This document shows positions 9,078-31,662 of a stretch of DNA of 44,974 bases, in pieces. Position numbers and translations under genes: made by a program. The stretch is from Myxococcota bacterium (GTDB taxonomy: Bacteria > Myxococcota_A > Polyangia > HGW-17): positions 1-44,974 of the forward strand of contig JAHJLU010000383.1 of assembly GCA_018821745.1 (NCBI GenBank), read 5' to 3'. Position 1 is the stretch's first letter, and the number at the start of each line of letters is the position of its first letter. The notes below the pieces were generated by a model. The model searched no databases, was not told the DNA's origin, and saw only the letters and a list, made by a program, of their open reading frames with translations.

Positions 9078-9255
9078 TTCTCACCATGCGGCGCGATGCC
9101 AAAACCAGCCAATGACCGGTCGTTTCTCCTGAAAAGAACTGAGAATTCTTGTTTTATAAAAATATAACAACCACTTAAAACTGATGTTTTAAATTTGTGT
9201 TTTTTTTACCAATGGGGATTTTTTTTTCCGTATGATGGGGCCAACGGAGGCAACT

Positions 9256-10638
9256 ATGGACACAGCTCCCTATTCAGAACCATATAAAATCAAAGTAGTA
9301 GAACAAATAAAACAGATCTCGCGAGAGGAACGGGCGCAAAAAATCAGGGAGGCACACTACAACCTCTTTTTGCTGCACGCTGAGGATGTGTATGTGGATC
9401 TCCTCACGGATTCAGGAACCGGAGCCATGAGCGACCGCCAGTGGGGGGCCCTCATGGAGGGGGACGAGAGCTACGCGGGTTCCCGAAGTTTCTTCGCCAT
9501 GAAAACGGCCATCAACGATATCCTCGGGCTTCCCCATGTGCTCCCTACCCATCAGGGAAGGGCGGCGGAGAATGTACTCTTCTCGGCACTCATCAAAGAG
9601 GGAGATGTCATCCCCGGGAACAGCCACTTCGACACCACCAAGGGGCACATCGAGTTCCGCAAAGCGTCAGCCGTTGACTGCACCATCGCCCAGTCCAAAG
9701 ATCCTTCCCTGAACCATCCCTTCAAGGGCAATGTCGACCTCATGGCACTGGAACAGTGCATCGCACAGCACGGGGCCGGGAGAATCCCCATGGTCATCAT
9801 CACCATCACCTGTAACTCGGGTGGTGGACAGCCCGTGTCCCTCGAAAACATCAGGGCTGTGGCCGAGATCACTAAAAAACACGGGATTCCGCTGATATTC
9901 GACGCAGCAAGGTTTGCAGAGAACGCCTACTTCATCAAGACCAGGGAGTCTGGCTGTGATAACCTCACCATCCGTGAGATTTGCCACGAGATGTTCACCT
10001 GTGCCGACGGGTGTACCATGTCGTCCAAAAAAGACGCCATCGTCAACATGGGAGGCTTCATCGCCCTGCGCAGTGAAGAACTCTTTCAGGCCTGCAGCGT
10101 CTTCAACATTATCTATGAGGGTTATATCACCTACGGTGGCATGTCCGGACGTGACATGGCGGCTCTGGCCCGGGGGCTCTACGAAGGCACGGAGTTTGAC
10201 TATCTCCACTCCCGAATCTCCCAGACGGCGTACCTTGGTAAACGCTTGGTGGAAGAGGGAATCCCCGTCCTACATCCCTTCGGCGGCCACGCTATCTACG
10301 TCAATGCCCTGGAATTCCTGCCCCACATTCCCCAGGAGCAGTTCCCCGCACAGGTCCTCGGCGTTGAACTCTACATTGAAGGCGGTGTCCGCGGCGTCGA
10401 GATAGGCACGGTCCTGGCAGACAGGGATCCCGTCACCCGGGAGAACCGACCCCCCAATATGGAGCTGCTGCGACTTGCCATTCCCCGCCGCGTCTACACC
10501 AACAATCACATGGAGGTGGTGGTGTGGGCGCTGAAAAAGGTGTGGCAGCGCAGAGAGCAACTCAAGGGGCTCTCCCTCACCTTCGAGGCGCCAATAATGC
10601 GCCACTTCACCGCCCACTTCACTCCTGTCAGTTCCTGA
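9256..10638 (+). CDS. PLP-dependent beta-eliminating lyase, tryptophanase / tyrosine phenol-lyase family
   Basis: Near full-length colinearity with recalled TnaA/TPL sequences: DLLTDSGTGAMSD, PTHQGRAAE, ITCNSGGGQPVS, FAENAYFIK, the PLP-lysine region MSSKKDAIVNMGG, RLAIPRRVYT and MRHFTA. GGAGG lies 5 nt before ATG 9256. Confidence 0.93.
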   Translation: MDTAPYSEPYKIKVVEQIKQISREERAQKIREAHYNLFLLHAEDVYVDLLTDSGTGAMSDRQWGALMEGDESYAGSRSFFAMKTAINDILGLPHVLPTHQGRAAENVLFSALIKEGDVIPGNSHFDTTKGHIEFRKASAVDCTIAQSKDPSLNHPFKGNVDLMALEQCIAQHGAGRIPMVIITITCNSGGGQPVSLENIRAVAEITKKHGIPLIFDAARFAENAYFIKTRESGCDNLTIREICHEMFTCADGCTMSSKKDAIVNMGGFIALRSEELFQACSVFNIIYEGYITYGGMSGRDMAALARGLYEGTEFDYLHSRISQTAYLGKRLVEEGIPVLHPFGGHAIYVNALEFLPHIPQEQFPAQVLGVELYIEGGVRGVEIGTVLADRDPVTRENRPPNMELLRLAIPRRVYTNNHMEVVVWALKKVWQRREQLKGLSLTFEAPIMRHFTAHFTPVSS

Positions 10639-10675
10639 AAAAACCTCACACGGGAGGGGAAAGTTCGGCCCGCTG

Positions 10676-17771: not shown

Positions 17772-20681
17772 TCATTTTGCATGTGTATCTTCCCATTTCA
17801 GGCCCTGAACATCAATACCGAAGCGCTTTATTTTATTATAGATAGTACCCCTGGAAACCCCAAGGTCCCTGGCAGTCCTGGTGGCGGAGTATCCGTTCCT
17901 CCGAAGACTCCCCAGCAGCCAGGTGCGCTCCATTTCATCCAGCGATGTTCCCTCGGGGGGCAGGTTAAACCCTTGCGGAGTGGCCAAAGGTTTTGACACA
18001 GGCTGCTCAATGAGCACGGCGGGAATGGAGTCAATCAACTTAACTCCCTGGGGAACCACATTGACCTCGGCCTCGACGATATGTTCCAGTTCCCGGATAT
18101 TTCCCGGCCACTGATAGGTCATCATCCGTTCAAGAACCTTCGGGCCAAAGCGCTCCACTTTCTTTCCCATTTTTCCCGCGAAGCGCTCCAGAAAAACCTG
18201 GGCAAGCCGGGGAATATCGGCCGCACGATCTCGCAGCGGAGGGATATGAAGGTGCATCACTCTGAGGCGGTATAACAGATCGGAGCGAAACTGATTGATC
18301 TCCACCAGCCGCTCCAGGGGGCGATTTGTCGTGGAGATAATGCGCACATCAAACAGGTACTCCAGGGTCCCTCCGATGCGCCGATACTGGCGTTCCTGAA
18401 GAACCCTGAGGAGTTTTGCCTGCATCTCCAGGGGCATATCGCCTATTTCATCAAGCAACAGAGTACCCCCTTCTGCCAGTTCAAATTTTCCCGGTTTCCC
18501 ACCCCTCACCGCCCCGGTAAAGGAGCCCTCTTCATACCCGAACAGTTCACTCTCCAGCAGTTCGCCCGGGATGGCAGCACAGTTGATGGCGATAAATGGC
18601 CCTTCACTCCGGTTCCCCGCGTTGTGGACCGCCTGGGCAAAAACTTCCTTTCCCGTCCCGCTCTCGCCGGTGATAAGAATATCTGACTCCGCCTGGGCAG
18701 CAATCCGTGCCAACTTCACCTGAGCCATGAAGGCAGGATCGTTCCCTGTGAGATGCTCGAAGGTGTAGCGGGGAGCAGGGACGGCAATGGAGTGAACCGC
18801 CTTCTTCACCTTGCGCAACTCGGTCATGGTGATGACCTCCCCTGCGGTCTCCCCGAGGTGATCCGTGAGAGGCCGCGAGATGGTCAGCACCTCTCCACGG
18901 GGAAAGCGCAGGAGCGTCTCCGTACGCAACCGTTTCAAGTCACTGGGCAGGTTAATGGGGAGTGTATCGAAGGGGACCCCCAGAATCTTATTTTTCGGCA
19001 TGTCAAAGAGCGCGATTGCGGCGCGGTTGATGGACATCACCTGCCGATGACGGTTCAGGGTGATCACGCCATCTGAGATAGCATCCAGAGTGGCCTCCAT
19101 ATTAATCGCCGTCACTCGGGAAATGCGCTGCATGCGATAATTGTCCAGGAGGGTCCCGACCTGCAGAATCAGGGACTCTATCATGGTGATATCCATGGGG
19201 GAGAGCTTGCTGCCCGACTTGCGCTTGTCACAGTAAATGACGCCGTAACAGGCATTCCCTGCACGCACGGGGAGGGCCGTCACGTGGGGATCAGACGAAG
19301 ATGAGACCTGAACTGCCTTGCGGGTCTTGAAGGGGAAAAAGTCGGGGACAACTGCTTCATCCGAATTCAACACCATCAGCGCTATCCGGTGCCAGGTATC
19401 GAGGGGAGTGCCTCTGATGATGGAGCCCCGAATTTGCGATTCCGGCGCATTGGGCAAGAAGGCCACTCCATCGGACTCCACAACCTCCATGATAATACCC
19501 AGCGTTGTCCCCATAAGAAGATCCTCTTCCAGGATGGAACTGAGCTTACGCCCGTATTCCACAAGGCGCTCCAGTTTTTTCCGCTCAACCCCCATCTGAT
19601 TGGCGGACTCCACCAGCTCCCGTCGTTTTTTCTCCAGATCCATGAGTGTGTGGTGTGTGGTCAGAAAGTTACCGATGACATGCTCCACCGACTGTTCCAC
19701 ATCCACCCAGTGATTCTCTGGGGCTCCCAGGTGGATCTCCATCAGTTTTTTCAAATCCTCATCCAGATTTTTCGCAAGACGCCCCAGAAAGTAGGATAAT
19801 CGACTGGAGTGTTCGTTGATCTCCCGGTTTCCCAGTTGATCGGACTCTCTGCGTCCGAATTTTTTGAACCCCTGATTGGTCCGCTCCAGGTCCCGAACCG
19901 TCCCACATTGGTGATAGAGCGTGAGGGCCCGGGCAAAATACCAGGCCGGAGGCCGAGACTGATCTCTAACAAGACTGCTTCCCACGCGCCCCAGCTCCCG
20001 CCCGACAAAATTTCCAGCGGCCAGATAGAGGGCAGCCTCATAAAACTGGTTCCCCTCTATGTTGCAATTCTCAATGGCAATATTGAAGTACTTGAGGGCG
20101 TTCTCTCCATCGCCGTTTTCCGCCATGGCCAGCGCCAAGGCATGGTACGCCTCGACTCCCAGCAGCGCATTATGCTCGGCGGATATTTCCTTGAGCGCTC
20201 TGTGGGCGGCCTCCAGAGCGGCCTCGGCATACCCCGACTGCTGACTGATCCTGCTCCGGAGTATAAAGCACTCTATTTCCAACTCCTTGTTGTACCAGGT
20301 CCCCAGAAGGGACTGTGCCCACACAAGAAGAGAGTCGGCCTCATCGAGCGAGTTGGTCGCAAGCTTCAGTCTCGTTTCAATCAGAGAAAAGGCGATGCTC
20401 TGATCCTTGTCGAAAACACGGTCAGCCAGCTCACGCCCCTCCATGATAAATCTCTCGCTCTCGGCGAATTTGGAGAGCTCCAGGGTGCAGCGCGCCAGCA
20501 TGAGCAGGATTTTACCCCGATCACCCCCATCCCGGCGCACAAGAAGATCCGCATAGTAGAGCAGGGCCAGGGAATGATGATAAAAACCCTTCTCCATATA
20601 CCGCTGGCACACACCGAGGAGTTCGGTTGTATCCCGGGGCAGTATGATGCCAGGTTCCTTATGGGAATTTTTTTTGTTCAT
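17772..20681 (-). CDS. Sigma54-dependent transcriptional activator (bEBP) with TPR, GAF and PAS input domains and no receiver
   Basis: AAA+ core: Walker A GESGTGKEVFA, GAFTGA-type loop ELFGYEEGSFTGA, Walker B TLLLDEIGDM. C-terminal Fis-type HTH TARDLGVSRGTIYNKIKRFGI. The N-terminal ~380 aa are TPR-like helical repeats. Confidence 0.92.
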   Translation of the reverse strand: MNKKNSHKEPGIILPRDTTELLGVCQRYMEKGFYHHSLALLYYADLLVRRDGGDRGKILLMLARCTLELSKFAESERFIMEGRELADRVFDKDQSIAFSLIETRLKLATNSLDEADSLLVWAQSLLGTWYNKELEIECFILRSRISQQSGYAEAALEAAHRALKEISAEHNALLGVEAYHALALAMAENGDGENALKYFNIAIENCNIEGNQFYEAALYLAAGNFVGRELGRVGSSLVRDQSRPPAWYFARALTLYHQCGTVRDLERTNQGFKKFGRRESDQLGNREINEHSSRLSYFLGRLAKNLDEDLKKLMEIHLGAPENHWVDVEQSVEHVIGNFLTTHHTLMDLEKKRRELVESANQMGVERKKLERLVEYGRKLSSILEEDLLMGTTLGIIMEVVESDGVAFLPNAPESQIRGSIIRGTPLDTWHRIALMVLNSDEAVVPDFFPFKTRKAVQVSSSSDPHVTALPVRAGNACYGVIYCDKRKSGSKLSPMDITMIESLILQVGTLLDNYRMQRISRVTAINMEATLDAISDGVITLNRHRQVMSINRAAIALFDMPKNKILGVPFDTLPINLPSDLKRLRTETLLRFPRGEVLTISRPLTDHLGETAGEVITMTELRKVKKAVHSIAVPAPRYTFEHLTGNDPAFMAQVKLARIAAQAESDILITGESGTGKEVFAQAVHNAGNRSEGPFIAINCAAIPGELLESELFGYEEGSFTGAVRGGKPGKFELAEGGTLLLDEIGDMPLEMQAKLLRVLQERQYRRIGGTLEYLFDVRIISTTNRPLERLVEINQFRSDLLYRLRVMHLHIPPLRDRAADIPRLAQVFLERFAGKMGKKVERFGPKVLERMMTYQWPGNIRELEHIVEAEVNVVPQGVKLIDSIPAVLIEQPVSKPLATPQGFNLPPEGTSLDEMERTWLLGSLRRNGYSATRTARDLGVSRGTIYNKIKRFGIDVQGLKWEDTHAK

Positions 20682-20781: not shown

Positions 20782-22413
20782 TCAGGAAACCGGCTTATTG
20801 AGAACCTTTCGGATATGCAATGACAGCTCATTGATATCATATGGTTTCTGGATATAATCAAGGCAACCTTCCGTCATGAGTTCCTGAGCTGCCCCCTCGT
20901 AGGTGTACCCTGAGGTGAGAAGCACACGCATGGAGGGGACAATCTGACGAACACTCCGGAAGGTCTCCGTACCGTCCATATCGGGCATGATCATATCCAT
21001 AACAATCAAATCAATCGCTTCACCCATCTCCCTGACCCGGTTGACCGCCTCACGTCCACTCTCGGCGAGGATGACCTGGTATCCCAACTTGGCGAGCATA
21101 CTTCCGGCCGTTTTCAGAATAATTTCTTCATCGTCCACCAACAGCACGGTCTCGCTGCCCCGAAGAATTTCACCGGTCGCGGGGGTCATTTCCCGGGCCA
21201 CATCATGGGCCACGGGGAAATAGAGGAAGAAACTGGACCCCCTGTCAAGCTCCGAGGTAACATTCACAAAGCCCCCGTGGTTCTTCACTACACCATACAC
21301 AGAGGCCAGGCCGATCCCCGATGAACGGGAGCTGTCCTCCGCGAACTGCGGCTCAAAAATATGCTCCAGGATCTCCTTTTTGATACCATGTCCCGAATCC
21401 TTCACCACCACTTCCACATAATACCCTGCGGTCGCAAGATAGATGGACGCCTGCCGCTCATTGATCTCCATATTTCCGGTACTTATCTCGATGGTCCCCC
21501 CCTTCTCCATGGCCTGGGAGGCATTCACCAGCAGGTTCATGAGCGCCTGCTCTATCTGACTCTTCATCCCTTCAATGGGCAGAAGATTTTTGCCCGGGAA
21601 GGTCTTGACCTGAATCTCCTTGTGGGCTCTGGAGAACAGTCTCACGGTCTCGTCAATGAGCTCATCCAGTTGAATGGAGACCTGCTCATGGGCACCACCA
21701 CGGGCAAACCGCAAAAGCTGCCTGGTCAGTTTAGACCCGCTGACAATATACTGTTTAATACTCTCCAGGCGCATATAGTCCGGGTCGTCGCGCTCTTTCT
21801 CGTGCAGCAGGATCGACACATTCCCCATCATGGCCATTAAAAGGTTGTTGAAATCGTGTGCTATTCCTCCCGCGAGAGCTCCCGTCGCCTCCATCCGCTG
21901 CAAATACTGGAGCTGTCTGTCACGCTCACCGTCACTGACATGCTCCTCAACCCGCTTCCTGATACATCCGATGATGCTGGCCAAAAGCGTAAACACGGGC
22001 AGCGTTTCTTCAGCATCCATGGTGGTGCCGGGAAATGCAAAACAGAGCACACCCCTGATCTCCTCATGGCAGGGGACAGGAACAGCCACATTTCTGTGGG
22101 ATTTTTCCTCGGGAGCCTCAATGATCACCGGCTCGCCCAGGAGCGCCTTGGCCAACTCCGGTGGAAGATCTCCGAAAATTTTATTTGGGGAAGTCCCCGG
22201 GGAATCCCACCGCGCAACCGGACGCAGCAGGTTGTCGTCATTGAGGAGAAACACGGAGATTGCCGTGGCCCCCGTATGGGGAGCTACCATCTCCAGGTAG
22301 CCGTTGTACGAGAAGTCTCCCCGGGAGTCGTAGTGCTCATTGGCGCGTCCCAGAACATCAAGCAGTGATAACATACCGGAAGATAAAGGAAAACCTGTTT
22401 TTAATCCACTCAT
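20782..22413 (-). CDS. Hybrid sensor histidine kinase (GAF-like N-terminus, HisKA, HATPase, receiver)
   Basis: H-box GGIAHDFNNLLMAMMGN. ATPase boxes LLVNASQAM, KDSGHGIKKE and SGIGLASVYG. Receiver VLLVDDEEI...DLIVMDMIMPDMDGTE...LQKP. AAGGA lies upstream of the ATG. Confidence 0.9.
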   Translation of the reverse strand: MSGLKTGFPLSSGMLSLLDVLGRANEHYDSRGDFSYNGYLEMVAPHTGATAISVFLLNDDNLLRPVARWDSPGTSPNKIFGDLPPELAKALLGEPVIIEAPEEKSHRNVAVPVPCHEEIRGVLCFAFPGTTMDAEETLPVFTLLASIIGCIRKRVEEHVSDGERDRQLQYLQRMEATGALAGGIAHDFNNLLMAMMGNVSILLHEKERDDPDYMRLESIKQYIVSGSKLTRQLLRFARGGAHEQVSIQLDELIDETVRLFSRAHKEIQVKTFPGKNLLPIEGMKSQIEQALMNLLVNASQAMEKGGTIEISTGNMEINERQASIYLATAGYYVEVVVKDSGHGIKKEILEHIFEPQFAEDSSRSSGIGLASVYGVVKNHGGFVNVTSELDRGSSFFLYFPVAHDVAREMTPATGEILRGSETVLLVDDEEIILKTAGSMLAKLGYQVILAESGREAVNRVREMGEAIDLIVMDMIMPDMDGTETFRSVRQIVPSMRVLLTSGYTYEGAAQELMTEGCLDYIQKPYDINELSLHIRKVLNKPVS

Positions 22414-22662
22414 GATAACCGCAATCCTTCACAGCAGGACAGACAGGCGACGTATGCCCCATGGAAACCACCATTACAATCACTGAAGTTTACAGGAGAC
22501 CCTAAAAAAAGAGAAGCACAAATTAACGCCATGGCGCCAGAATTCCTTGAGAAAGATTGGAGTTCGCGCCATCGCGCCGATTGAACACAAAACGCATCTT
22601 TGTGACCTTTTGCTTGTCTTTTTATGGAAGGTCGGTAAATTTCTCCTCTGCTAGGAGGAAAC

Positions 22663-23328
22663 ATGAACAGAACATCATTTTCAATAATTGTCACGCTGAT
22701 GGCCACCCTGGTCCTTTCCGGGTGCCAGAAAAAATCAGACAAATCCAAGGAATCCAAACAGGATAAAACCACCAGGGGGCTTATAAACACGGGTGAGGCG
22801 GCCGTGGACAAGGCCATAAAATCACAAAAGCCCGTAGTGATAATCAACACTTCTCTGGGCACAATAGAGGTGGAGCTTGACGCGGTCAAGGCACCCGTCA
22901 CCAGCCGCAATTTTCTTCGATATGTGGTCCGCGGCCATTACACCAACACGATCTTTCACCGGGTCATGTCAAATTTCATGATCCAGGGTGGTGGCTTCAC
23001 TACGGAGAAAATCGAAAAGGGAGACCTGCTCGAGCCCATCAAGAACGAAGCAGGGAACGGGCTCTCCAATGTTCGGGGAACCATCGCCATGGCGAGGACA
23101 CCCAACCCCAACAGCGCCAAAGCCCAGTTCTTCATTAACGTCAAAAATAACGACAAGCTCGACAGAGCCAACTCCCGGGACGGTTTCGGATATGCCGTTT
23201 TCGGAAAGGTAATCAACGGCATGGACGTTGTCGACAAGATCCGATACGTCCGTGTCTCCAACCAGGGAGGCCCCTTCGCCAATCTCCCTGATACCATGGT
23301 GGTCATCAAGGGCATGAAGATTAAGTAG
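22663..23328 (+). CDS. ppiA: Cyclophilin-type peptidyl-prolyl cis-trans isomerase, lipoprotein
   Basis: Strong SD (AGGAGGAAAC-ATG). Lipobox LVLSGC. Cyclophilin blocks FHRVMSNFMIQGGGF, GTIAMARTPNPNSAKAQFFINV and GYAVFGKVINGMDVVDKI. Confidence 0.92.
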   Translation: MNRTSFSIIVTLMATLVLSGCQKKSDKSKESKQDKTTRGLINTGEAAVDKAIKSQKPVVIINTSLGTIEVELDAVKAPVTSRNFLRYVVRGHYTNTIFHRVMSNFMIQGGGFTTEKIEKGDLLEPIKNEAGNGLSNVRGTIAMARTPNPNSAKAQFFINVKNNDKLDRANSRDGFGYAVFGKVINGMDVVDKIRYVRVSNQGGPFANLPDTMVVIKGMKIK

Positions 23329-23357
23329 ATGCCCTTTAGCCCCAAAAAAGGTTTTGA

Positions 23358-24254
23358 ATGGATGATTCGAGAGCGCCTCTCCAGCCGGGCGAGCAGATTT
23401 TTCAACGTAAACACCCCGAAGGCCTGGAAAAAGGTCAGCAGGATTCTCTGTGGCTGGAGATAGCACAGACCTCCATTCTCATTGAAACCTTCTTCGGACC
23501 GGCGCCAACTCCCTTCATCAGCGGGCGCATGGCTCCCTTCTCCATCAAACCCCGAAACCCTGAAATCATTCTGAGTATCACCTTCGATGACTCTCTTGTC
23601 CCCTTCACGGCCTCCTCGGAAATCGTCGCCGAGCGTAGTGGCGGGGACCTCCTCTTTTGTGCCCCCCAGTACCGGTTGCAACTGAGCCTGAGTCCGGGAG
23701 CAGTTACCCGGGGAACCGTCGTTTGCAGGGGCAGCTTTGAACAGATCCTGGGAGCCCTGAGGCTGGCCCTCGCGCACCACCTGGTCTTCACGGGCAGGGG
23801 ATTTTTGCTCCACGCTTCGTGTGTTCTTGTGGGGGACACGGCCCACCTCTTTCCCGGTCCCTCGGGGACCGGGAAAAGCACTGCCATATCCAGGGCTCCG
23901 GGCACCATCCTCGCCGACGAAATTACCGCGCTCACGGTTTCCCCCGGAGGGATTCTGCGGGCGAGCGGGACTCCCTTCGGCAATCGCCTGCAGCCTTCAT
24001 CGCTCCATTGCCCGCAACTTATCATCCACAAAATTGTCCATGCACAGGAAAACCGAGCCCTTCCCACCACGGCGGGAAGAATTGTTTCGATTTTACTGGA
24101 GTCTCTGGTGTTTTCTCCCACAGATGACGCCGAAGGCCAGATTATACTGGATTTGCTGATGAAAATCATCGATGGCTGCTCCTACGACATACTCCACCTG
24201 CGTGCCGATGGCAGCTTCTGGAGACCATACCTCCCCACGGGTGAAACAAAATGA
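23358..24254 (+). CDS. HPr-kinase-like P-loop protein (putative peptide kinase or accessory protein of a RiPP-type cassette)
   Basis: The C-terminal half GFLLHASCVLVGDTAHLFPGPSGTGKSTAISRAPGTILADEITAL matches the HprK C-terminal-domain layout (G-x-G-hydrophobic-G-x-SG-x-GKS...ADD/E). The stop overlaps the PqqD start (ATGA). Confidence 0.6.
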   Translation: MDDSRAPLQPGEQIFQRKHPEGLEKGQQDSLWLEIAQTSILIETFFGPAPTPFISGRMAPFSIKPRNPEIILSITFDDSLVPFTASSEIVAERSGGDLLFCAPQYRLQLSLSPGAVTRGTVVCRGSFEQILGALRLALAHHLVFTGRGFLLHASCVLVGDTAHLFPGPSGTGKSTAISRAPGTILADEITALTVSPGGILRASGTPFGNRLQPSSLHCPQLIIHKIVHAQENRALPTTAGRIVSILLESLVFSPTDDAEGQIILDLLMKIIDGCSYDILHLRADGSFWRPYLPTGETK

Positions 24255-24526
24255 CGACCTATCGCATACCCAAAGGCATCGCCAGCAGGAAGCTCAGTGA
24301 GGAATTTTTCCTCCTCTCTCCCAAAACCTCCACCATGCACACGCTGAACCCCATGGGCTCAGCCATGCTGACCCTCCTCTCCAATGGAAAATCTCCACGG
24401 GAGATCGGCGAGATCCTCAGTCAGGAATTCGACGCCAGGGCCGAGACAATAGAAAAAGATGCCAATGACCTGGTCACACTGCTGCTGGATCAGGGACTCC
24501 TTGAAGTCACCGGGGAAAAGGAGTAG
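24251..24526 (+). CDS. PqqD-family peptide-binding chaperone (RiPP recognition element)
   Basis: 91 aa with the typical PqqD pattern: IASRKLSEEFFLLSPKTSTMHTLNPMGSAMLTLLSNGKSPREIGEILSQEFD...AETIEKDANDLVTLLLDQGLL. Confidence 0.8.
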   Translation: MTTYRIPKGIASRKLSEEFFLLSPKTSTMHTLNPMGSAMLTLLSNGKSPREIGEILSQEFDARAETIEKDANDLVTLLLDQGLLEVTGEKE

Positions 24527-24528
24527 CT

Positions 24529-25539
24529 GTGACCATCTGGGAGAGATTCCGATATGAGACCGCCGCACAGGGCAAAATTACCGCGCTGGATCTGGAGTTG
24601 ACCAAGCGGTGCAATCTCTCCTGTGCCCATTGCTACAAGCTCCGGGGACCGCAGATGATGGACGGGTCGCTGTTTCACCGGGTCCTGGACCAGGCGAGGG
24701 AGCTTGGAATTTTCATGATCGGGTTCAATGGGGGTGAACCCCTGTCCCATCCACAGTTTCTCCCCTTCGCCCGGCGAGTCCTGGAGGAGGGTATTTTCCT
24801 GACCCTGGTCACCAACGGCACGCTCATAACAGAGCAGATGGTCCATGAACTCTCGGCGTGGAAGGGGATTCGTTTTCAGGTGTCACTGTATGGACACGAT
24901 CCCGCCTCTTTCTCGGCGCTCACCGGGGCTCCCGGTTCCCTGTGGGAGAAGGCGCTTCATTCTCTGGAGCTCATTCGCGGGGCAGGGTTCCACCTGGAGG
25001 TGATCCTCCTGGCGGTTGATCAGGAGATCGCCCACATCGGTGGGTTCATGGCATCCCTGAAAAATCAGGGGTTTGACACATGGGTAAATCCCATCCTCTT
25101 TCCCAGGGAGGACGGCGATGAGACGCCCCTGAAGTTTGCCCTTTCCAATGAAAATTATCTAAAACTCTCCCAACTGGAAGACTACAACCCCATTCCCCGC
25201 TGCGAAGGAAACTGTCAGGCCTGTGGCGCCGGGGTCTCATCACTGTCGGTGGATGTCTTCGGGAATATTGTCCCCTGCCTTCTTATCCGTGAGTCACTGG
25301 GAAAAATCCCAAATACTTCCCTGGCAGATGCCCTTGGTGGGGAGACCCTTAAAAACTTCATAAAAAAGAATTCCATCCCACCCCAGTGTGTAGAGTGCGA
25401 TTATTATCCCCACTGCGTTCGCTGCCCCGGCGCTTCCGTGTTCACTACAGGATTGCTCACGGGCATCTCTGGGGAGACCTGCCGCATGGCCAGGTTGCGG
25501 CAAATTTTCCACTCGAGCCACCACCCGGACCATCACTGA
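24529..25539 (+). CDS. Radical SAM enzyme with C-terminal SPASM domain (peptide-modifying maturase type)
   Basis: CNLSCAHC (CxxxCxxC) is followed by the GGEP motif FNGGEPLS. SPASM pattern CGAGVSSLSVDVFGNIVPC...CVECDYYPHCVRC...C. The GTG start lies 5 nt after AAGGAG and 2 nt after the PqqD stop. Confidence 0.9.
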   Translation: MTIWERFRYETAAQGKITALDLELTKRCNLSCAHCYKLRGPQMMDGSLFHRVLDQARELGIFMIGFNGGEPLSHPQFLPFARRVLEEGIFLTLVTNGTLITEQMVHELSAWKGIRFQVSLYGHDPASFSALTGAPGSLWEKALHSLELIRGAGFHLEVILLAVDQEIAHIGGFMASLKNQGFDTWVNPILFPREDGDETPLKFALSNENYLKLSQLEDYNPIPRCEGNCQACGAGVSSLSVDVFGNIVPCLLIRESLGKIPNTSLADALGGETLKNFIKKNSIPPQCVECDYYPHCVRCPGASVFTTGLLTGISGETCRMARLRQIFHSSHHPDHH

Positions 25540-25561
25540 CATTAACCATAACAGAAAGCAA

Positions 25562-25590
25562 TTGGGTACTTGCTCATTTTTCGTTAGATA
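25562..25590 (+). promoter_or_regulatory. Weak sigma70-like promoter candidate ahead of the FG-GAP lipoprotein gene
   Basis: TTGGGT (25562..25567), a 17-nt spacer, then TAGATA (25585..25590), in the AT-rich 140-nt gap. Confidence 0.2.
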
Positions 25591-25679
25591 CTAAACTGGA
25601 TTAACGATATTATCTATGCTCCTGAAATTGGATCGGCCATCCCGATCATTAAACCCAAAGGGAATCCCTGGAGGTAACC

Positions 25680-28600
25680 ATGCGACATCTGGCACTATTC
25701 TTATTGGTAATATGGACATTGGGCGCCGTCTCCTGTGATGACGACAGCAACAATTCCAATAACATCAACAACACAAACAACACAAATTGTGACTGCCAGG
25801 TGACCATCGACACCATCAATGGTCGGGACCTGATGACCGTGAACAACCTTATCCAGGATCAGGACGACCAGGATGTAAACACCGCCGGGTTCCAGATTGA
25901 GGTGGCGGTTTCCTTCTCACAGACTGCCCCCTGTGTCCCTGAAGACGGCTCCACTGCCAGACTCTCGGGAGGCGTCGAGACCATGCAGGCCACCATAACC
26001 AACGGGCAGGCGGTCTTCTCCGGATACTCCATCCCATCGGGGAACGGAGTCCTCCAACTTATCGCCTCCGCCGGCGGCTGCTCCTCTGAACCCACAGATA
26101 TCCTGCTCTCCACCACCCCGGTCCCCATCTGCGCCATCGTCTCCGGGGTCACCTCCGGGACCAGCTACTCCTGTGAAAACGACGACGAAGTTCCGGGGCA
26201 ACTTGGTCTTCAGCGACTCATAACCGCCCAGTGCTCCAATGTGGCCCAGGGCACCACCGTCAACTTCCTGGTGGACGGCAACATGCAAGCTTCCGGCGTC
26301 ACGGGTGTCACGGGCCAGGTGAGCGCCCAGGTGACCTTCCCGGTGACGGCCATCTGCAAAGACACGGTGATCGTCTCCCTCTCGGGTGAATACGACGGCG
26401 CCACCCTCGAAGACGCAATCGCTACGGGTGAAGCCTGCTGCCTCGGCGCCATCCCCTGCTCCATGGGATGGATCGAAGGGACCCACTTCGTGACGGGCAC
26501 ACCCGCAGGAGTCGACACCATGAACGTCGCCACCGATATGGAATCGACCACAGCGGACCACCAGAACCAGTACCAGATCACTACCAACCGAAGCGAAGTC
26601 TCCAGTATCGCCCTTATGGCCGATGACGGTTCGGGGACCTTCACCCAGGTGTGCGGCTCCACGTCACTCACCGCCAACACCGTGACGCTTGACTGCACAA
26701 TCCCCGACGGCACCGTGGCTATCAAACCCGTCTGCACCATTACGGGTGAGACCACTCCCTTCGAAGATGCGAGCCAGCACCACACGGTATACGTTGACAC
26801 CATCCCTCCCACATACGCATCCGATTTTTCCTGCAATGTCTCCAACGCACACGAGGTCGACATCTCCTGCGCCTGGACCATCCCCGGTACCGCCGGCACC
26901 GGTGAAGAAATCTTCGGCACTATTGTTCGATACACCGACACATACGACTCCACCGCAACATGCCTCGCCGACTCCTTCGGCCTCTTTGACACCGGCTGGT
27001 CAACCCTTGATGATGCGCCTGGCCTTTCAACTCTCGATGGAGCAGGAATCCCCGGTGAAGCCAAAAATCACACCTTCACCCCCTTCTCCCCCGGCCCCGG
27101 CTACTGCATGGGCGAGAAGCTCATGGACTTCGGCGGCAATCTCTCCCAGGGGACAGGCGTCTCCTGGACCGGCGCGGTCTACCCAACCATGCAGACCATC
27201 CCCGGCTACAGTGATGACTCCCAGTACGGCAGCGCCCTGGCCACGGTGGATCTCAACTGCGACGGCCTCAAAGATCTCGTTGTAGGGGCCCCCATCGGCC
27301 ACTACGATGCAGCCTGCGGCGGTGACGGTTTCTGTGAAGGCGACGGCAAGGTCTTCGCCTATTTTGCCAAATCCACGGGCGGCTACAGCAGCACCCCCGA
27401 CATCGTCATGACCCACGATCCCGATCTGGGCTACGACACCTATTTCAACTTCGGCATCGCCATGGCAGGGATCGGCAATTTTTCCCGGCACACCGCCATC
27501 GGCAACGACAGCCCTGCCTGCGAGGATCTCGCCGTGAGCGCCCTCTATATGTTAAACGAAGATTTCTATTATACTGGAGAGGTCTACATCCTCAAGGGGC
27601 GACCCGACTGGACCGGCTTTGGGCAGATCTCCACCAAAACCGACGACGCCACCTCCTTTGACATGGTCATTAAATATCGCCGGGGTGCCAGCGATTACTC
27701 TGATAACTATTATTTCTATGAAGAGTTCGGGATTAGCCTCGCGGCCATCGGCGACTTCAACGGCGACGGCTTCGGAGATATGGCCATCGGGGCCCCCGGA
27801 GCCATGCCCTCTGGCGCCGTCTACGGCCTTTTTAGTCGCCCCATCCCCTTCAAGGCCGGCACCAACCCGCCCGTCTACCTTGAAGCCCCCGCCCAGATGA
27901 GCTTCAGCCTCCTGGGGAACTCCACCCTCTCCGCCACGGTTGCCCCCTATGTCTCTGACTACGAGTTCCTGGGGTGGTCCATGTCCGCTTTGGGAGACTA
28001 CAACGGCGACGGCTACGACGACATGCTGGTGGGCGCTCCCGGCTGCGGTGGACTCTGGGGCTACGGAACCTGGGGCGGAACCACCAACGCTCCCGGCAAA
28101 GCCTTCATCATCCTGGGGGGTACCGGCGACAGCACCACCTTCGACTCCGTGACCTACAGCGGCACCAGACTCTTTACCCTCACCCAGGACACGGCGACCA
28201 TCCCCGGAACCAGCTGCTTCGGCTGGAAGGTGGCGGGGTTTGGCGACATCAACGACGATGGCCTCCTGGACTTCGGCGTCTCCGATCGCAATTATGATAT
28301 GCCCGGTTCTTCGGGAGTCGGCAACTTTGAGGGGGCCTTGTTTGTCTACTTCGGTGATGGAACCGTCGGCGATCTCCAGACCTCCGACGCCGGGATGAAA
28401 ATGCGCAGCGAAAACGAACTCACCGTCTCCTCCGATAACTTTGGCGTCGCCGTGGCCCGCTCCGTGGAGACGGTCAACACCCCCATGGGCGACTTCAACA
28501 ACGACGGCATCCCCGACATCCTCGTGGGTGCACAGCACTTTGACACATATCACGGCAGCACCTTTGTGTGGTACGGTGACGTCACGCTGGTGCCCAACTA

Positions 28601-28811
28601 CCAGCCCGACAACTGGATCACCTACGAAGAGGCCACCTTCTGGTTCACCCCCCCCTCCCCCAACGGGTACTGGGGAGTGACCACCATCTGGCTGGGTGAT
28701 TCCAACAACGACGGCTACTCCGATATCGCCATCGGAGACCCCGTCTGGGACACCTTTTATTCAGGCGGTGGTTCTAATCCCAACAGGGGGCGCGTCACCA
28801 TCATCTACTAG
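25680..28811 (+). CDS. Large surface/secreted lipoprotein: Asn-rich linker, Ig-like N-terminal half, integrin-alpha-type FG-GAP/VCBS beta-propeller C-terminal half
   Basis: GGAGG precedes the ATG. Lipobox TLGAVSC is followed by DDDSNNSNNINNTNNTN. There are at least six Ca-binding FG-GAP loops. Confidence 0.88.
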   Translation: MRHLALFLLVIWTLGAVSCDDDSNNSNNINNTNNTNCDCQVTIDTINGRDLMTVNNLIQDQDDQDVNTAGFQIEVAVSFSQTAPCVPEDGSTARLSGGVETMQATITNGQAVFSGYSIPSGNGVLQLIASAGGCSSEPTDILLSTTPVPICAIVSGVTSGTSYSCENDDEVPGQLGLQRLITAQCSNVAQGTTVNFLVDGNMQASGVTGVTGQVSAQVTFPVTAICKDTVIVSLSGEYDGATLEDAIATGEACCLGAIPCSMGWIEGTHFVTGTPAGVDTMNVATDMESTTADHQNQYQITTNRSEVSSIALMADDGSGTFTQVCGSTSLTANTVTLDCTIPDGTVAIKPVCTITGETTPFEDASQHHTVYVDTIPPTYASDFSCNVSNAHEVDISCAWTIPGTAGTGEEIFGTIVRYTDTYDSTATCLADSFGLFDTGWSTLDDAPGLSTLDGAGIPGEAKNHTFTPFSPGPGYCMGEKLMDFGGNLSQGTGVSWTGAVYPTMQTIPGYSDDSQYGSALATVDLNCDGLKDLVVGAPIGHYDAACGGDGFCEGDGKVFAYFAKSTGGYSSTPDIVMTHDPDLGYDTYFNFGIAMAGIGNFSRHTAIGNDSPACEDLAVSALYMLNEDFYYTGEVYILKGRPDWTGFGQISTKTDDATSFDMVIKYRRGASDYSDNYYFYEEFGISLAAIGDFNGDGFGDMAIGAPGAMPSGAVYGLFSRPIPFKAGTNPPVYLEAPAQMSFSLLGNSTLSATVAPYVSDYEFLGWSMSALGDYNGDGYDDMLVGAPGCGGLWGYGTWGGTTNAPGKAFIILGGTGDSTTFDSVTYSGTRLFTLTQDTATIPGTSCFGWKVAGFGDINDDGLLDFGVSDRNYDMPGSSGVGNFEGALFVYFGDGTVGDLQTSDAGMKMRSENELTVSSDNFGVAVARSVETVNTPMGDFNNDGIPDILVGAQHFDTYHGSTFVWYGDVTLVPNYQPDNWITYEEATFWFTPPSPNGYWGVTTIWLGDSNNDGYSDIAIGDPVWDTFYSGGGSNPNRGRVTIIY
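25737..25787 (+). repeat. Asn-rich linker coding region, near-identical to part of 12152..12223
   Basis: Encodes DDDSNNSNNINNTNNTN. The core aattccaataacatcaacaacacaaacaacacaaat differs from the reverse complement of the other locus (aattctaataatatcaacaatacaaacaacacaaac) only at third-codon positions. Confidence 0.8.
27249..28741 (+). repeat. FG-GAP repeat region (protein-level)
   Basis: The six loops are DLNCDGLKDLVVGAP, IGDFNGDGFGDMAIGAP, LGDYNGDGYDDMLVGAP, FGDINDDGLLDFGVSD, MGDFNNDGIPDILVGAQ and LGDSNNDGYSDIAIGDP. Confidence 0.8.
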
Positions 28812-28836
28812 ATGGAGGCACAAAAGGAGACTATAG

Positions 28837-29016
28837 ATGGAAAATTCATCGACACAAACACCCGAAAGTCGGACTGACAAACAGAAGAAACCCTACACTC
28901 CGCCACAACTGTTGAGTGAGAAGGTCTTTGCCACCGACGCCCTGGGAGGGTGCCGCATGGCATCGTTCGCCGACGGTTGTGGCACGCGCCGCGATGTCTA
29001 CCTCTCCTCCCTCTGA
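28837..29016 (+). CDS. Unlisted 59-codon ORF: candidate RiPP precursor peptide (lasso-type leader motif, GG junction, two-Cys core)
   Basis: My own translation is MENSSTQTPESRTDKQKKPYTPPQLLSEKVFATDALGGCRMASFADGCGTRRDVYLSSL, with stop TGA at 29014..29016. AAGGAG at 28824..28829 lies 7 nt before the ATG. The ORF starts 25 nt after the preceding stop and ends 4 nt before the next ATG. It is one codon below the apparent size cut-off of the ORF track. Confidence 0.5.
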   Translation: MENSSTQTPESRTDKQKKPYTPPQLLSEKVFATDALGGCRMASFADGCGTRRDVYLSSL

Positions 29017-29020
29017 TCAC

Positions 29021-29416
29021 ATGCCCTCTCTAGCGCTCACCCTCATCTCGTCCTCCATGGCACCCACCATCACCGAGGGGCAGACCGTCTGGTCCACCCC
29101 CTGCGTTTCCCCTTGTGCAGGGCAGATTGTGGTTATCCCCAGGGGCACCATCTATGTGGTCCACCGGCTGGTGCTGCGCTTCCCCGCCCCCTTTTCCCGG
29201 TGGGGCCTCGAGCGGGGTGACAATGAAAAATTTCCCCGCCTCGTTCACCTGAAGAAGCTGGCAGGCGTTGTGATCATGCCTGAACTCGGGCCCTCTCCCA
29301 CCCGCCGAAACCCCCTGGGAGAGCTGTGGTGGTGGGGACGCAGCATGGGAGGAAACCTCTATTACCGAATGATCACTCGCCTGCCGGTTATTGGAGCCAT
29401 CCATGCCGGTGCTTGA
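29021..29416 (+). CDS. S24/S26-family serine peptidase, ER/SipW-like (Ser-His) signal-peptidase homologue without an obvious membrane anchor
   Basis: SSSMAPTI (the S-M-x-P-T serine box), GQIVVIP, YVVHRLV (His in the position of the S26A/S24 Lys, as in SipW/Sec11) and ERGDNE (GDN box). An alternative in-frame ATG lies at 28994. No hydrophobic N-terminal anchor with either start. Confidence 0.6.
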   Translation: MPSLALTLISSSMAPTITEGQTVWSTPCVSPCAGQIVVIPRGTIYVVHRLVLRFPAPFSRWGLERGDNEKFPRLVHLKKLAGVVIMPELGPSPTRRNPLGELWWWGRSMGGNLYYRMITRLPVIGAIHAGA

Positions 29417-30026
29417 CAGGCCCCCCAGAACCATTGGAGTCACAGGCGGAATCGGATCAGGCAAGTCCACCTTCTCCAAAATGCTGGCCAGCCTTGGTGG
29501 TATTCATCTTGACGGCGATCAACTGGCGAGAAAAGCCGTGGAACCCGGCAGTGAAGGTCTCCGTCAGGTGCGAGACCGTTTTGGACCGCAAATTCTAATG
29601 GACGACGGGACCCTCAATCGGAGAGCGCTGGGAGCCCTGGTATTTTGCGACCACGCCGCTCTGGCCGATCTGGAGGCCATTTTACACCCCCTCATCGGTG
29701 ATCTCCTGAAAGCCACAATAAAAACCGGGCCCTATCCCATTATCTATGAGGCCACCCTGTTGTTTGAGGCAGGCCATCACCATTTCACGGATCTCACGGT
29801 CACGGTGGTGGCACCCCGTGAGATCACCCTCGCCCGCGTTGCAATCCGGGACAGTCTGGGGGTTCCACAAATCAGGGACCGTCTCAATTCCCAGCACGAC
29901 GACTCCTATCGTCTGAACCTCTCCGATATTGCCGTTCATAATAACAACGATCTTGAAAGTCTCGAGCAAAAAGCCCGTACCCTCCACGGGGACATTCTGC
30001 GGGGATCCTTCAAGAGCGTCTACTGA
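29403..30026 (+). CDS. coaE: Dephospho-CoA kinase
   Basis: IGVTGGIGSGKST P-loop at the N-terminus, then LDGDQLAR, ILHPLI and EATLLFE, with the typical ~200-aa CoaE size. ATG 29403 overlaps the peptidase 3' end by 14 nt. Confidence 0.9.
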   Translation: MPVLDRPPRTIGVTGGIGSGKSTFSKMLASLGGIHLDGDQLARKAVEPGSEGLRQVRDRFGPQILMDDGTLNRRALGALVFCDHAALADLEAILHPLIGDLLKATIKTGPYPIIYEATLLFEAGHHHFTDLTVTVVAPREITLARVAIRDSLGVPQIRDRLNSQHDDSYRLNLSDIAVHNNNDLESLEQKARTLHGDILRGSFKSVY

Positions 30027-30027
30027 A

Positions 30028-31632
30028 ATGGATCCCTCAAAACATCTGTATAAGAGCATGGAGGCCCTCGTTGTCCTGGCGCTGGAGCAGCTTGTTCCAC
30101 CTCGAACCGTGTGGTGGAATCCACCGCAACAGGTCGTCCCCTTCGACTCGGATATTACCATCGGCCCGCGACCCTTTCTCCCCGAGGTCGTTATCCTGGT
30201 GACCCATGGCGGACCCCAAAATGGAGGTCAGGTGAAATTCTGGAGAGATCTCCATGAATTTTTCCTCTACCGGACAGCCAGACCAGCGACCAGAATCATT
30301 CGCGTCCTCTATGGAAGCGCCAATTCACCACAGTGGCACAGGCAGATGGTGCGGTTTTATGACGGGTCCCTGGAGCTGGACACTCTCCCCGCCTCGGCAC
30401 AAATCAATCAGTTATTGCTCTTGTGGACCACAGAACACTTTCACGCCATGGACCGTGAGGCGGTCAAAATATTTTTATCCGAGCGGTGTCAACACCCGCC
30501 TCTGGCTGGTTTTTTTTCACGTCTCAAGCAAGCGCTCTTTGCCCTACTGCAGGCACCCATGGGAGATTTTTTGCCAAAGCTGCCACCACGGGGGCTCATA
30601 ATGGAGCCATCCTTCCCCACCTCGGTGCGAAGAGCCGTCACCCTTTTGGGGCTCTTCCCCGAGCTGCTCCGCACGTCCATGTCGGGAAAAATGCGGCGCA
30701 GCCTCACGGAGGCCGGGATATTGGAGGAGAGCCTCACGGGCTTCAGACCGGCCTTTCCCTATGGTCACTACATCACCCAATCGAGGGATCTGCTGGGCAC
30801 GAAACTGCTCACCACTCTGGTAAAGAGAGCGGTGCCCCATCTCGCTCTCATCAGGCGTCGATGGGACCACCGAGACTGCTTGATCGAGAGCATACAGGAG
30901 GCTTGCAGGACAACCCGCCCTGAGGCGTGCGCCTTCTCTCAGTTTTCTGAGGAGGAGGCCATGGAGGTGGGTGGAAATCCCCTCCTCCTCGGTCTGCGCT
31001 ACGTCTTGAAATCCCGATCCCTGGACAGCTTCGGTCACGGACTGCTGCTCAGGGAAGCGGGACTCCCCCAGGACACCGCCTCCCTGTATCGCCTCTCGAG
31101 GATGTTCCGGGGTGAAATCCCCCTGGACCCGCGGCTGGAGGACCCACTGAAAACCCGCCTGGATCAGGCGAAGGAAATAATAGAGAGCTCGCGCGGCACC
31201 TTCAAACAGTCCATCTTTTCCGTGCTCTTCAAGGACGAGGCGATCAAGGTGCGCCAGGTGGAACCGCTGCTGTGGCTCCTCCAGCAGGGAGGACCCCCCC
31301 GAGCCCGTCTCGAGCCCTCTTTTCCTTCCCTGGTCGACCCGTCGGGCAGGGCGGGAACCGTGCGCCTCCTGGTCTCTGGATCGGCGCTGGCCCACTGGAA
31401 GACAGCCCACAAGGGACAGCGTGACAAGACCAAGGAGCTTGCCGCAAAGGGGTTTTCCCTTGCCGCCATGCACCCGGAAATCTCCCGCAGGTACCTCTTT
31501 CTGGATGGTGAATGGTCCCCGAAAAATCTGGGTATCCTCGCCACGAGCGGGTGGACCCACGTCTACCCAATCTCCGCCCTTGGGCCGGTTTTCATGAAAA
31601 AGAGGTTTACGAAAAAGAGTGTATGGGTATAA
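30028..31632 (+). CDS. Hypothetical protein (534 aa), no recognisable family
   Basis: The ATG lies 1 nt after the coaE stop. Composition is protein-like, whereas the 338-aa antisense ORF is G/R/E-rich shadow. I found no PP-loop, P-loop or metal motif. Confidence 0.65.
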   Translation: MDPSKHLYKSMEALVVLALEQLVPPRTVWWNPPQQVVPFDSDITIGPRPFLPEVVILVTHGGPQNGGQVKFWRDLHEFFLYRTARPATRIIRVLYGSANSPQWHRQMVRFYDGSLELDTLPASAQINQLLLLWTTEHFHAMDREAVKIFLSERCQHPPLAGFFSRLKQALFALLQAPMGDFLPKLPPRGLIMEPSFPTSVRRAVTLLGLFPELLRTSMSGKMRRSLTEAGILEESLTGFRPAFPYGHYITQSRDLLGTKLLTTLVKRAVPHLALIRRRWDHRDCLIESIQEACRTTRPEACAFSQFSEEEAMEVGGNPLLLGLRYVLKSRSLDSFGHGLLLREAGLPQDTASLYRLSRMFRGEIPLDPRLEDPLKTRLDQAKEIIESSRGTFKQSIFSVLFKDEAIKVRQVEPLLWLLQQGGPPRARLEPSFPSLVDPSGRAGTVRLLVSGSALAHWKTAHKGQRDKTKELAAKGFSLAAMHPEISRRYLFLDGEWSPKNLGILATSGWTHVYPISALGPVFMKKRFTKKSVWV

Positions 31633-31662
31633 CTTGCCCGAGGAAAGCGCGGGCCAGAGCCC

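Follow-up and report, generated by a model that had tools for sequence, protein, structure and literature searches.

What do the three tightly packed genes at positions 23358-25539 of contig JAHJLU010000383.1 make, and on which substrate do their products act? The contig belongs to a Myxococcota metagenome-assembled genome (MAG), and the window, as we call the whole stretch of DNA that was analysed, comprises 44,974 nucleotides (nt). A first-pass annotation had read the genes, which encode a P-loop protein, a PqqD-type protein and a radical SAM/SPASM enzyme, as a triad with no adjacent precursor peptide. We found a five-gene unit instead. Its core genes are those of the P-loop protein, the PqqD protein, the radical SAM/SPASM enzyme, a precursor peptide and an S26-like peptidase, and in the window the gene for an FG-GAP repeat lipoprotein is inserted among them. 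The region is probably a divergent Myxococcota member of a conserved pathway of the type that makes peptides synthesised by the ribosome and modified after translation (RiPPs), with individual steps that we propose by analogy. The pathway is apparently uncharacterised. None of the curated protein-family models describes this combination of genes, and the full-text literature, with subscription journals outside the search, gave no description, product or function for it; the earlier suggestion of an undescribed combination agrees with this.

The odd-looking triad has become a defined system of five genes, and its precursor family, now identified, has at least 834 cluster representatives and is spread over hundreds of Acidobacteriota species and the Myxococcota. 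An explicit substrate is available for biochemical reconstitution. The system brings together parts that were not known to cooperate, namely a leader and RiPP recognition element (RRE) of the lasso type, a radical SAM/SPASM enzyme, an ATPase of the HPr kinase (HprK)/phosphoenolpyruvate carboxykinase (PEPCK) fold and an anchor-less SEC11-type peptidase. For two soil phyla that are abundant and poorly cultured, it further points towards a function connected with the envelope or matrix.

The gene block and its precursor peptide family

By inspection of the sequence, positions 22663 to about 29416 form a single same-strand block of closely spaced genes. On the forward strand the cassette runs from the P-loop protein (23358..24254, 298 amino acids (aa), NCBI tag KKF84_10260) through the PqqD-type chaperone (24251..24526, 91 aa), the radical SAM/SPASM enzyme (24529..25539, 336 aa), the FG-GAP lipoprotein (25680..28811, 1043 aa) and the precursor (28837..29016, 59 aa, KKF84_10280) to the peptidase (29021..29416, 131 aa). 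The stop codon TGA of the P-loop open reading frame (ORF; 24252-24254) overlaps the ATG of the PqqD ORF at 24251, giving ATGA. The GTG start of the radical SAM ORF at 24529 lies 2 nt past the PqqD stop codon TAG (24524-24526) and has an AAGGAG at 24518-24523. The P-loop ORF carries FPGPSGTGKSTA and the radical SAM ORF carries CNLSCAHC. The tight packing, these motifs and the SPASM cysteine array had all been reported from the letters, and the sequence and the Pfam searches bore them out.

The 59-codon ORF had been put forward as the best substrate candidate, and comparison with orthologues, profile searches and motif statistics strongly supported it. Its gene has an AAGGAG 7 nt 5' of the ATG. 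The leader contains KKPYTPPQL, and the predicted core, GCRMASFADGCGTRRDVYLSSL, has two conserved Cys. Precursor relatives were present in each related locus having enough flanking DNA (loci are numbered here with the prefix L and single proteins with P), among them L003, L005, L010, L011 and L012. The gene stood immediately upstream of the P-loop gene in L005 and L011, in an uncalled gap in L012, and between the PqqD and radical SAM genes in L010. The statement that there is no adjacent precursor was thus misleading, because the peptide is encoded in the same gene block and, in relatives, directly beside the maturases; what the relatives carry there is the same peptide family and not a different one. 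Between the window and the sister locus L003, whose layout is identical, the precursors were 70% identical and the P-loop proteins 37%, and the two precursor genes differed by 23 synonymous-only and 17 non-synonymous codons.

A precursor profile built from six peptides gave 35 clusters at 90% identity, and one built from 33 peptides gave 834 representatives at 50% among 1.84 billion cluster representatives, with the motif present in 40/40 of those representatives that were inspected. In species-representative genomes at least 569 precursor pattern matches were confirmed among the 600 matches listed, and the best 80 confirmed loci came almost entirely from Acidobacteriota MAGs. Ten precursors compared with NCBIfam and Pfam matched no model at E <= 1.

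All precursors had the common motif [KR][KR]xYxxPx(F/L); its [KR][KR]xYxxP part was found in 37/37 Myxococcota-type sequences and in all 81 Acidobacteriota sequences parsed. From the Tyr to the first Cys there were 18 residues in 33 Myxococcota-type peptides and in 81/81 Acidobacteriota peptides, and 19 in the 4 peptides of the window clade. Residue Y+15 was Ala or Ser in the Myxococcota type and Ala in 81/81 Acidobacteriota peptides, and residue Y+17 was A, S, G, T or N in the former and S, A or V in the latter. Two Cys, 8-15 residues apart, were the rule in the Myxococcota type (three in 2 sequences), and Acidobacteriota peptides also had two, with a spacing of 9 residues in 77. The C-terminal residue was Ser in 33/37 Myxococcota-type and 81/81 Acidobacteriota peptides. 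The 18-residue spacing, the two Cys and the C-terminal Ser make the family unusually rigid in its invariants. The cores themselves varied among the Acidobacteriota (66 distinct cores among 81 precursors, with invariant C-G-K...C...K-x-S positions), and in the main Myxococcota clade the core CSGVKNTAGFPVGNC(S/T)MQS was nearly invariant despite divergent leaders.

No hydrophobic region or signal sequence was found in the precursor. The idea that the peptide is a lipoprotein, suggested by LGGC or SLAC before the Cys, was rejected for this reason. We also rejected Ser43 of the window peptide as the counterpart of the terminal Ser of other clades, as this position is Gly in the window-clade member P0069.

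The putative maturation enzymes and their predicted roles

The window P-loop protein reached no curated Pfam or NCBIfam model; only HprK_rel_A appeared (E = 0.013-0.05), and there was no match to Pfam Hpr_kinase_C. In a sequence search of the PDB with a profile, generic P-loop matches predominated and PEPCK and HprK appeared only as weak longer ones, so a fold search was needed to settle the class. An AlphaFold2 model was built on six homologues (pLDDT 81.5, pTM 0.83). In the Foldseek comparison with the PDB about 35 of the top 36 matches were ATP-dependent PEPCK (E = 5e-6 to 2e-4). The HPr kinase/phosphatase 1ko7 ranked 16 (E = 3.8e-5), more HPr kinase/phosphatase entries followed lower down, and the sole other match at E <= 0.001 was an unrelated respiratory-supercomplex chain. 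Eight residues were invariant in 31 relatives, namely H152, G167, S169, G170, G172, K173, T175 and D187. The protein has the fold, the P-loop (GPSGTGKST), the upstream His and the downstream acidic metal-binding residue of the HprK/PEPCK class. Taken together, the fold and the invariant His, P-loop and Asp indicate a protein of the HprK/PEPCK fold whose nucleotide and metal site is intact. They uphold the earlier description of the protein as HprK-like and leave no room for the objection that it is unrelated to HprK.

We predict that this protein is an ATP-dependent phosphotransferase with the precursor peptide as its substrate. A Ser kinase activity would fit the near-universal C-terminal Ser of the precursors and has precedent in the literature. 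A natural fusion of the HprK-like and PqqD proteins, P0005 (L009 1127-2302), occurs in a relative of the window clade and provides Rosetta-stone evidence that both proteins act together. A profile search of the genome contigs with the P-loop alignment gave no match, and the metagenome scan returned L010 only.

The PqqD protein matched Pfam PqqD (PF05402, E = 5.7e-14), and its best NCBIfam model was lasso_PqqD_Strm (34 bits, under the cut-off of 70). The radical SAM enzyme matched Radical_SAM (PF04055, E = 1.2e-16) and, over the gathering score, SPASM (PF13186, E = 3e-6). CNLSCAHC spans its residues 28-35, and the seven-Cys SPASM array consists of C232, C250, C287, C290, C296, C299 and C318. 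The enzyme is homologous over nearly its full length to those of L003, L010, L005, L011 and L012. When the window sequence and six orthologues were aligned, the three radical SAM Cys and the seven SPASM Cys were conserved, with the exception of C318, which is Lys in L010. Every NCBIfam equivalog match of the enzyme was far under its cut-off, the top score being 73.8 bits for a tungsten-cofactor maturase (cut-off 380). The CxxxCxxC motif, the seven-Cys SPASM domain, the PqqD-like RRE and the short precursor with a conserved leader are together the general marks of an RRE-dependent radical SAM/SPASM RiPP system, and the enzyme is predicted to be the peptide maturase.

The fifth gene, at 29021-29416, had been overlooked; with it in the unit a predicted leader protease is present. 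Its ATG at 29021 lies 4 nt past the precursor stop codon. An alignment of six sequences showed conserved S(C)-M-x-P, H-R and G-D motifs, and its profile matched human SEC11A (6e-10) and SEC11C (1e-9), followed by bacterial signal peptidase I and LexA. In the SEC11A match the catalytic Ser, His and Asp were aligned. Orthologues matched TIGR02228 sigpep_I_arch (best 4.4e-12, below the cut-off of 51.85 bits), and the window peptidase alone had no NCBIfam match. Its match to the family HMM (hidden Markov model), at 8e-43, is expected by construction, because the window sequence is one of the six from which the HMM was built. With the SM-x-P, HR and GDN motifs and the homology, the family has the features of S26B peptidases of the SEC11/SipW type. 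With its catalytic Ser at residue 12, the window peptidase lacks the customary N-terminal membrane anchor, and in L005 and L017 the orthologues likewise have no N-terminal hydrophobic stretch. The peptidase gene lies 3' of the precursor or radical SAM gene in all clades except L016/L098, and after the precursor in 71/80 Acidobacteriota loci. In the L010 locus (9996-10415) the peptidase has Cys as nucleophile (GCM-x-P), where all others have Ser (SM-x-P).

Gene content, order, motifs, co-occurrence and fold are established, and for chemistry and binding we propose the following by analogy. The discrete PqqD protein would bind the leader motif [KR][KR]-x-Y-x-x-P-x-(L/F), as lasso RREs do with YxxPxL, the leader motif of actinobacterial lasso peptides (PMC6784204). 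It would then hand the peptide to the radical SAM/SPASM enzyme, which may modify the core at or between the two invariant Cys; because there are two of them, a thioether-type cross-link is the most economical guess and the most likely product. Given its fold, its conserved catalytic residues and the near-universal C-terminal Ser of the precursors, the HprK/PEPCK-fold ATPase may phosphorylate a Ser at or beside the C-terminus, much as lasso peptides are phosphorylated by HprK-family kinases. PadeK and PsmK, two such kinases, attach the phosphate to the C-terminal Ser through its side chain and require a DD metal site (PMC6993621). The anchor-less SEC11-like peptidase would cut off the leader 18 residues past the Tyr, where the preceding residues obey a small-x-small rule. 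The A/S-x-small pattern at Y+15 to Y+17 appears to fit signal-peptidase specificity; in most clades the predicted cut would fall immediately in front of the first Cys, and in the window clade in front of Gly-Cys. The order of these steps is left free. More speculatively, the product may act at the cell envelope, which is suggested by the partners of the cassette: FG-GAP lipoproteins in Myxococcota, and ABC-2 exporters, exopolysaccharide (EPS) loci and large secreted proteins in Acidobacteriota.

Several points weigh against this pathway. Every biochemical step is drawn by analogy, and the window P-loop and S26-like proteins are recognisable only via their relatives. The window clade is an outlier of the precursor family, with its Tyr-to-Cys distance of 19, a 16-residue C-terminal extension of the core and C-termini of LSSL or LSSV in place of Ser. 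Peptidases of the SEC11/SipW type normally work on Sec substrates, outside the membrane. Here there is no anchor, nor a hydrophobic signal sequence in the precursor, so that a cytoplasmic role as leader peptidase is without a precedent that we could find. In the L016/L098 sub-clade (PqqD, giant protein, precursor, ScmC-like protein, radical SAM enzyme) no S26-like gene is adjacent; the peptidase may there be encoded elsewhere or be dispensable. The window holds no exporter, and the two Cys might form a simple disulfide. The nearest curated relatives of the radical SAM enzyme are the cofactor maturases MftC, PqqE, AhbD and NirJ and not sactipeptide or ranthipeptide synthases.

Kinship with described pathways

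Is the cassette a true SynChlorMet cassette, or a lasso system with its cyclase and B2 protease elsewhere in the genome? We consider this extremely improbable, and the evidence divides as follows. SynChlorMet (ScmC TIGR04249, ScmD TIGR04248, ScmE TIGR04250, ScmF TIGR04251) likewise combines an ScmC-family P-loop protein, a discrete PqqD and PqqE-like radical SAM/SPASM proteins, and a kinship with it had been suggested in the first-pass annotation. At the level of the Pfam family this link stood for the homologues: P0004, which is 37% identical, and almost all of the 35 profile matches have the precomputed assignment PF27840:ScmC. This assignment is blank for the window protein (P0001) and for P0002; our Pfam scan of the window protein returned no PF27840 either, a model that was possibly missing from the library copy scanned. 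At the level of the equivalogs the link did not stand. Against ScmC (cut-off 125 bits) the window protein had no match even at E <= 10, and relatives stayed below threshold (best 42 bits for P0011; E = 8.6e-6 for the L010 protein). The window PqqD had no match to ScmD (cut-off 100 bits) at E <= 0.01, with 46 bits for the L010 PqqD, and the window radical SAM enzyme scored 71.4 bits with the ScmE model and 57.0 with that of ScmF (cut-off 400 each). A single radical SAM gene is present and not two, and the cassette adds a precursor family together with an S26-type peptidase, joined in Myxococcota by an FG-GAP protein. To our knowledge, the precursor of SynChlorMet has never been identified, and the peptide family described here offers a lead on it.

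With the lasso systems that employ an HprK-family kinase (paeninodin with PadeK, pseudomycoidin with PsmK) the cassette shares YxxPx(L/F) about 17-18 residues before the core, a discrete PqqD-type RRE, an HprK-fold kinase with P-loop and acidic metal site, and substrates that end in Ser (PMC6784204, PMC6993621). The earlier remark on a lasso-style leader is accurate in that YxxPxL occurs in the window leader, and the model that gave the PqqD protein its highest score is a lasso PqqD one, although at the 34 of 70 bits given above. The position equivalent to the lasso Thr at -2 is Leu or Val, and neither Asp nor Glu is conserved at the ring-forming core positions 7-9. In place of a cyclase and a B2 protease the window has a radical SAM/SPASM enzyme and an S26 peptidase. 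Six-frame open stretches of at least 80 aa over the whole window contained neither an SGGxDS PP-loop nor an LSGGQ signature of ATP-binding cassette (ABC) proteins, and the 20 other large window ORFs scanned gave no Pfam match to Asn-synthetase, transglutaminase, ABC or C39 families. These two scans uphold what had been said of the window, that it has no Asn-synthetase-like cyclase, B2 protease, ABC exporter or C39 peptidase. The same five genes are also fixed in the Acidobacteriota loci, whose flanks were not scanned for a cyclase.

Mycofactocin (MftA/B/C/E) and pyrroloquinoline quinone (PQQ; PqqA/D/E/F) share with the cassette a small precursor, a discrete PqqD-like chaperone, a radical SAM/SPASM enzyme and a dedicated peptidase, and in mycofactocin the modification is located at the C-terminus. 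They differ in that the window has a kinase-like protein, other precursor motifs, a peptidase of another family and no downstream redox-tailoring genes. The window radical SAM enzyme scored 68.7 bits against MftC TIGR03962 (cut-off 265) and 57.2 bits against PqqE TIGR02109 (cut-off 381), over the N-terminal half only. The sactipeptide and ranthipeptide maturases (AlbA, PapB, StsB) are likewise radical SAM/SPASM enzymes that act on Cys-containing RiPP cores via an RRE. In those systems the RRE is usually fused and a C39/ABC or M16 protease is usual, whereas in the window the RRE is separate, neither protease occurs and the core has only two Cys. Scores were 48 bits against PapB (cut-off 340) and 52 bits against AlbA (cut-off 850). 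SipW and SEC11 (S26B) share with the window peptidase the SM-x-P, HR and GD(N) motifs and the small residues at -3 and -1 of the predicted cleavage site; the window peptidase differs in having no anchor, a substrate without signal sequence and a gene whose genetic link is with RiPP maturases and not with secreted matrix proteins. The cassette belongs to none of the curated sactipeptide, ranthipeptide, mycofactocin, PQQ or GeoRSP families. It follows the general logic of RRE-dependent radical SAM RiPPs and extends it by an ATPase of the HprK/PEPCK fold and an S26B peptidase that has no anchor.

Partner genes and the possible use of the product

The distribution of the cassette was examined with five family HMMs over 98 loci. 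The window's own five sequences belong to the set from which the HMMs were built, so that its matches to them are expected by construction. The Acidobacteriota counts refer to the best 80 loci of the precursor scan with flanks of 7 kb. All five genes occurred together in 71/80 of these loci. In 67/80 the order was precursor, S26-like, HprK-like, PqqD and radical SAM, and in 4/80 it was HprK-like, PqqD, radical SAM, precursor and S26-like, which is the window order minus the FG-GAP gene. A PqqD gene was found in 75/80 loci and in 71/71 of those with the complete set.

In the Myxococcota the cassette has a further member that the first-pass annotation had not recognised as a conserved partner. 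The window FG-GAP protein (FG-GAP PF01839, E = 8.7e-27) has a C-terminal beta-propeller region, and its N-terminal LGAVSC-DDD resembles a lipobox. Giant FG-GAP or Big_13 proteins (1032-2341 aa) are encoded inside the cassettes of L003/4, L005-8, L011, L012, L016 and L098, and they occupy two different gene orders. In the main Myxococcota clade the order is beta and alpha electron-transfer flavoprotein (ETF) genes, PqqD, FG-GAP (1880-2340 aa), precursor, HprK-like, radical SAM and, where present, S26-like. Because it recurs within Myxococcota cassettes, the FG-GAP gene is a clade-specific but consistent partner.

Such a partner might itself be the substrate. The PqqD, radical SAM and P-loop proteins would then mature the FG-GAP protein, like anaerobic sulfatase-maturating enzymes, and the small ORF would be incidental or regulatory. 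The embedding of the FG-GAP gene in the Myxococcota cassette speaks for this, as does a Cys of the propeller region, Cys846, that the FG-GAP alignment shows to be invariant. We nevertheless judge it very improbable. The cassette stands without any FG-GAP gene in 71/80 Acidobacteriota loci and in L010, and the peptide, in which a constant distance separates an RRE-type motif from the first Cys, always accompanies the enzymes. The FG-GAP proteins are Sec and lipoprotein substrates, while the radical SAM and ATP-dependent enzymes are cytoplasmic, and the two Myxococcota FG-GAP groups have little sequence in common.

A different possibility keeps the peptide as the substrate and changes the use of the product. 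Instead of a free natural product, this would be a cofactor derived from the peptide, or a cross-linked small subunit, in the service of a secreted beta-propeller protein. In the PQQ and mycofactocin pathways a discrete PqqD-like chaperone, a radical SAM/SPASM enzyme and a peptidase together make a cofactor. In quinohemoprotein amine dehydrogenase (QHNDH) the radical SAM/SPASM enzyme QhpD cross-links a small subunit, a dedicated serine protease removes the leader, and the processed small subunit assembles with a propeller subunit. A propeller lipoprotein gene lies within all Myxococcota cassettes in two gene orders, the core is near-invariant in the main clade although the leaders diverge, and the cassettes sit in a single-copy housekeeping context (CoaE and ValRS in the window; ETF, dnaN, recF or RNase G elsewhere). 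The cofactor maturases named above as nearest curated relatives of the radical SAM enzyme point the same way, and so do the large secreted proteins that flank extra precursor copies in Acidobacteriota. The Acidobacteriota otherwise argue against it. Their precursors have many distinct cores, although the invariant C-G-K...C...K-x-S is still compatible with a cofactor. The ABC-2 exporter genes directly upstream in 44-45/80 loci suggest that a peptide is exported. No FG-GAP gene was found within 7 kb in the 80 loci, and the large secreted proteins have no detectable kinship to FG-GAP proteins. No redox enzyme consistently accompanies the cassette. We regard this use of the product as unlikely. 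The more specific form of the idea, in which no secreted antibiotic-like RiPP is made and a phosphorylated, cross-linked mini-peptide would serve the FG-GAP lipoproteins of Myxococcota and the large secreted proteins of Acidobacteriota as their dedicated cofactor or small subunit, seems to us quite unlikely. If true, it would be a new 'peptide plus propeller' partnership like those of PQQ and QHNDH, with a wide distribution among soil bacteria and a possible connection to exopolysaccharide or the extracellular matrix.

The large secreted proteins in question (600-1100 aa, no Pfam match) adjoin the cassette in about 21/80 Acidobacteriota loci, for example in L014 (6456-8534 and, on the reverse strand, 9232-11658), L059 (4861-6930), L062 (4899-6989), L074 (9976-11922) and L063 (several copies). 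In L014/L015 and L063 they flank or alternate with extra precursor copies, and in L014/L015 no maturase genes are nearby. Fold hints to TolB and to designed propellers were non-significant. Homology to the FG-GAP proteins was rejected, with an hhalign probability of 0.2 and no Pfam match.

The ABC-2 transporter genes (ATPase and permease; e.g. L017 7206-8866) lie directly upstream of the precursor gene and encode a candidate exporter. A GGDEF/PilZ protein is encoded downstream of the radical SAM gene in Acidobacteriota loci, which suggests a link to cyclic di-GMP signalling. In L010 (3935-7710, 10686-12245), a five-gene cassette without FG-GAP gene, and in the P0067 contig, cassette variants lie inside EPS export loci. 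Their neighbours encode a polysaccharide export protein, a Wzc-type tyrosine kinase and a Wzy_C protein, and further a PEP-CTERM-associated outer-membrane protein and PilZ-like TIGR02266 proteins. A variant in Bacteroides caecigallinarum (L013 5555-9233) has no radical SAM gene and consists of a PqqD-like protein, an ABC transporter, S26-like and ScmC-like proteins and a second PqqD, from which it appears that the trio of S26-like, HprK-like and PqqD proteins may be a module of its own.

The gap between the end of the ETF beta and alpha genes and the PqqD gene that follows them is 5-10 nt in L005/L006 (1-456), L011 (23-2073) and L012 (1-1682), and about 113-115 nt in L016 (1-1831) and L098 (1-716). 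This adjacency could reflect a functional link, such as electron supply for the radical SAM enzyme, or plain synteny.

Upstream of the P-loop gene, at a distance of 29 nt, ends a gene for a secreted cyclophilin-type peptidyl-prolyl isomerase (22663..23328, forward strand; Pro_isomerase PF00160, E = 1.9e-44). It is directly upstream also in L001, L003/L004 and L009 and absent in other clades; because this conservation is confined to the window's own clade, its membership of the unit is uncertain. Divergent from the block are the reverse-strand genes for a sigma-54-dependent activator (17772-20681, 969 aa) and a hybrid histidine kinase/response regulator (20782-22413). L001 has the same layout, and the two proteins may be regulators of the cassette or may reflect clade synteny. 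A promoter and terminator scan of 22300-31700 was uninformative. Downstream, a 567-aa ORF at 29929-31632 (forward strand) lies between coaE and valS and has no Pfam or NCBIfam match; a comparable ORF follows the coaE gene in L003. Near the end of the window, at 43841-44890 on the reverse strand, a protein with PA14 and DUF4215 (myxobacterial cysteine-rich repeat) domains is encoded, which fits the Myxococcota origin of the window.

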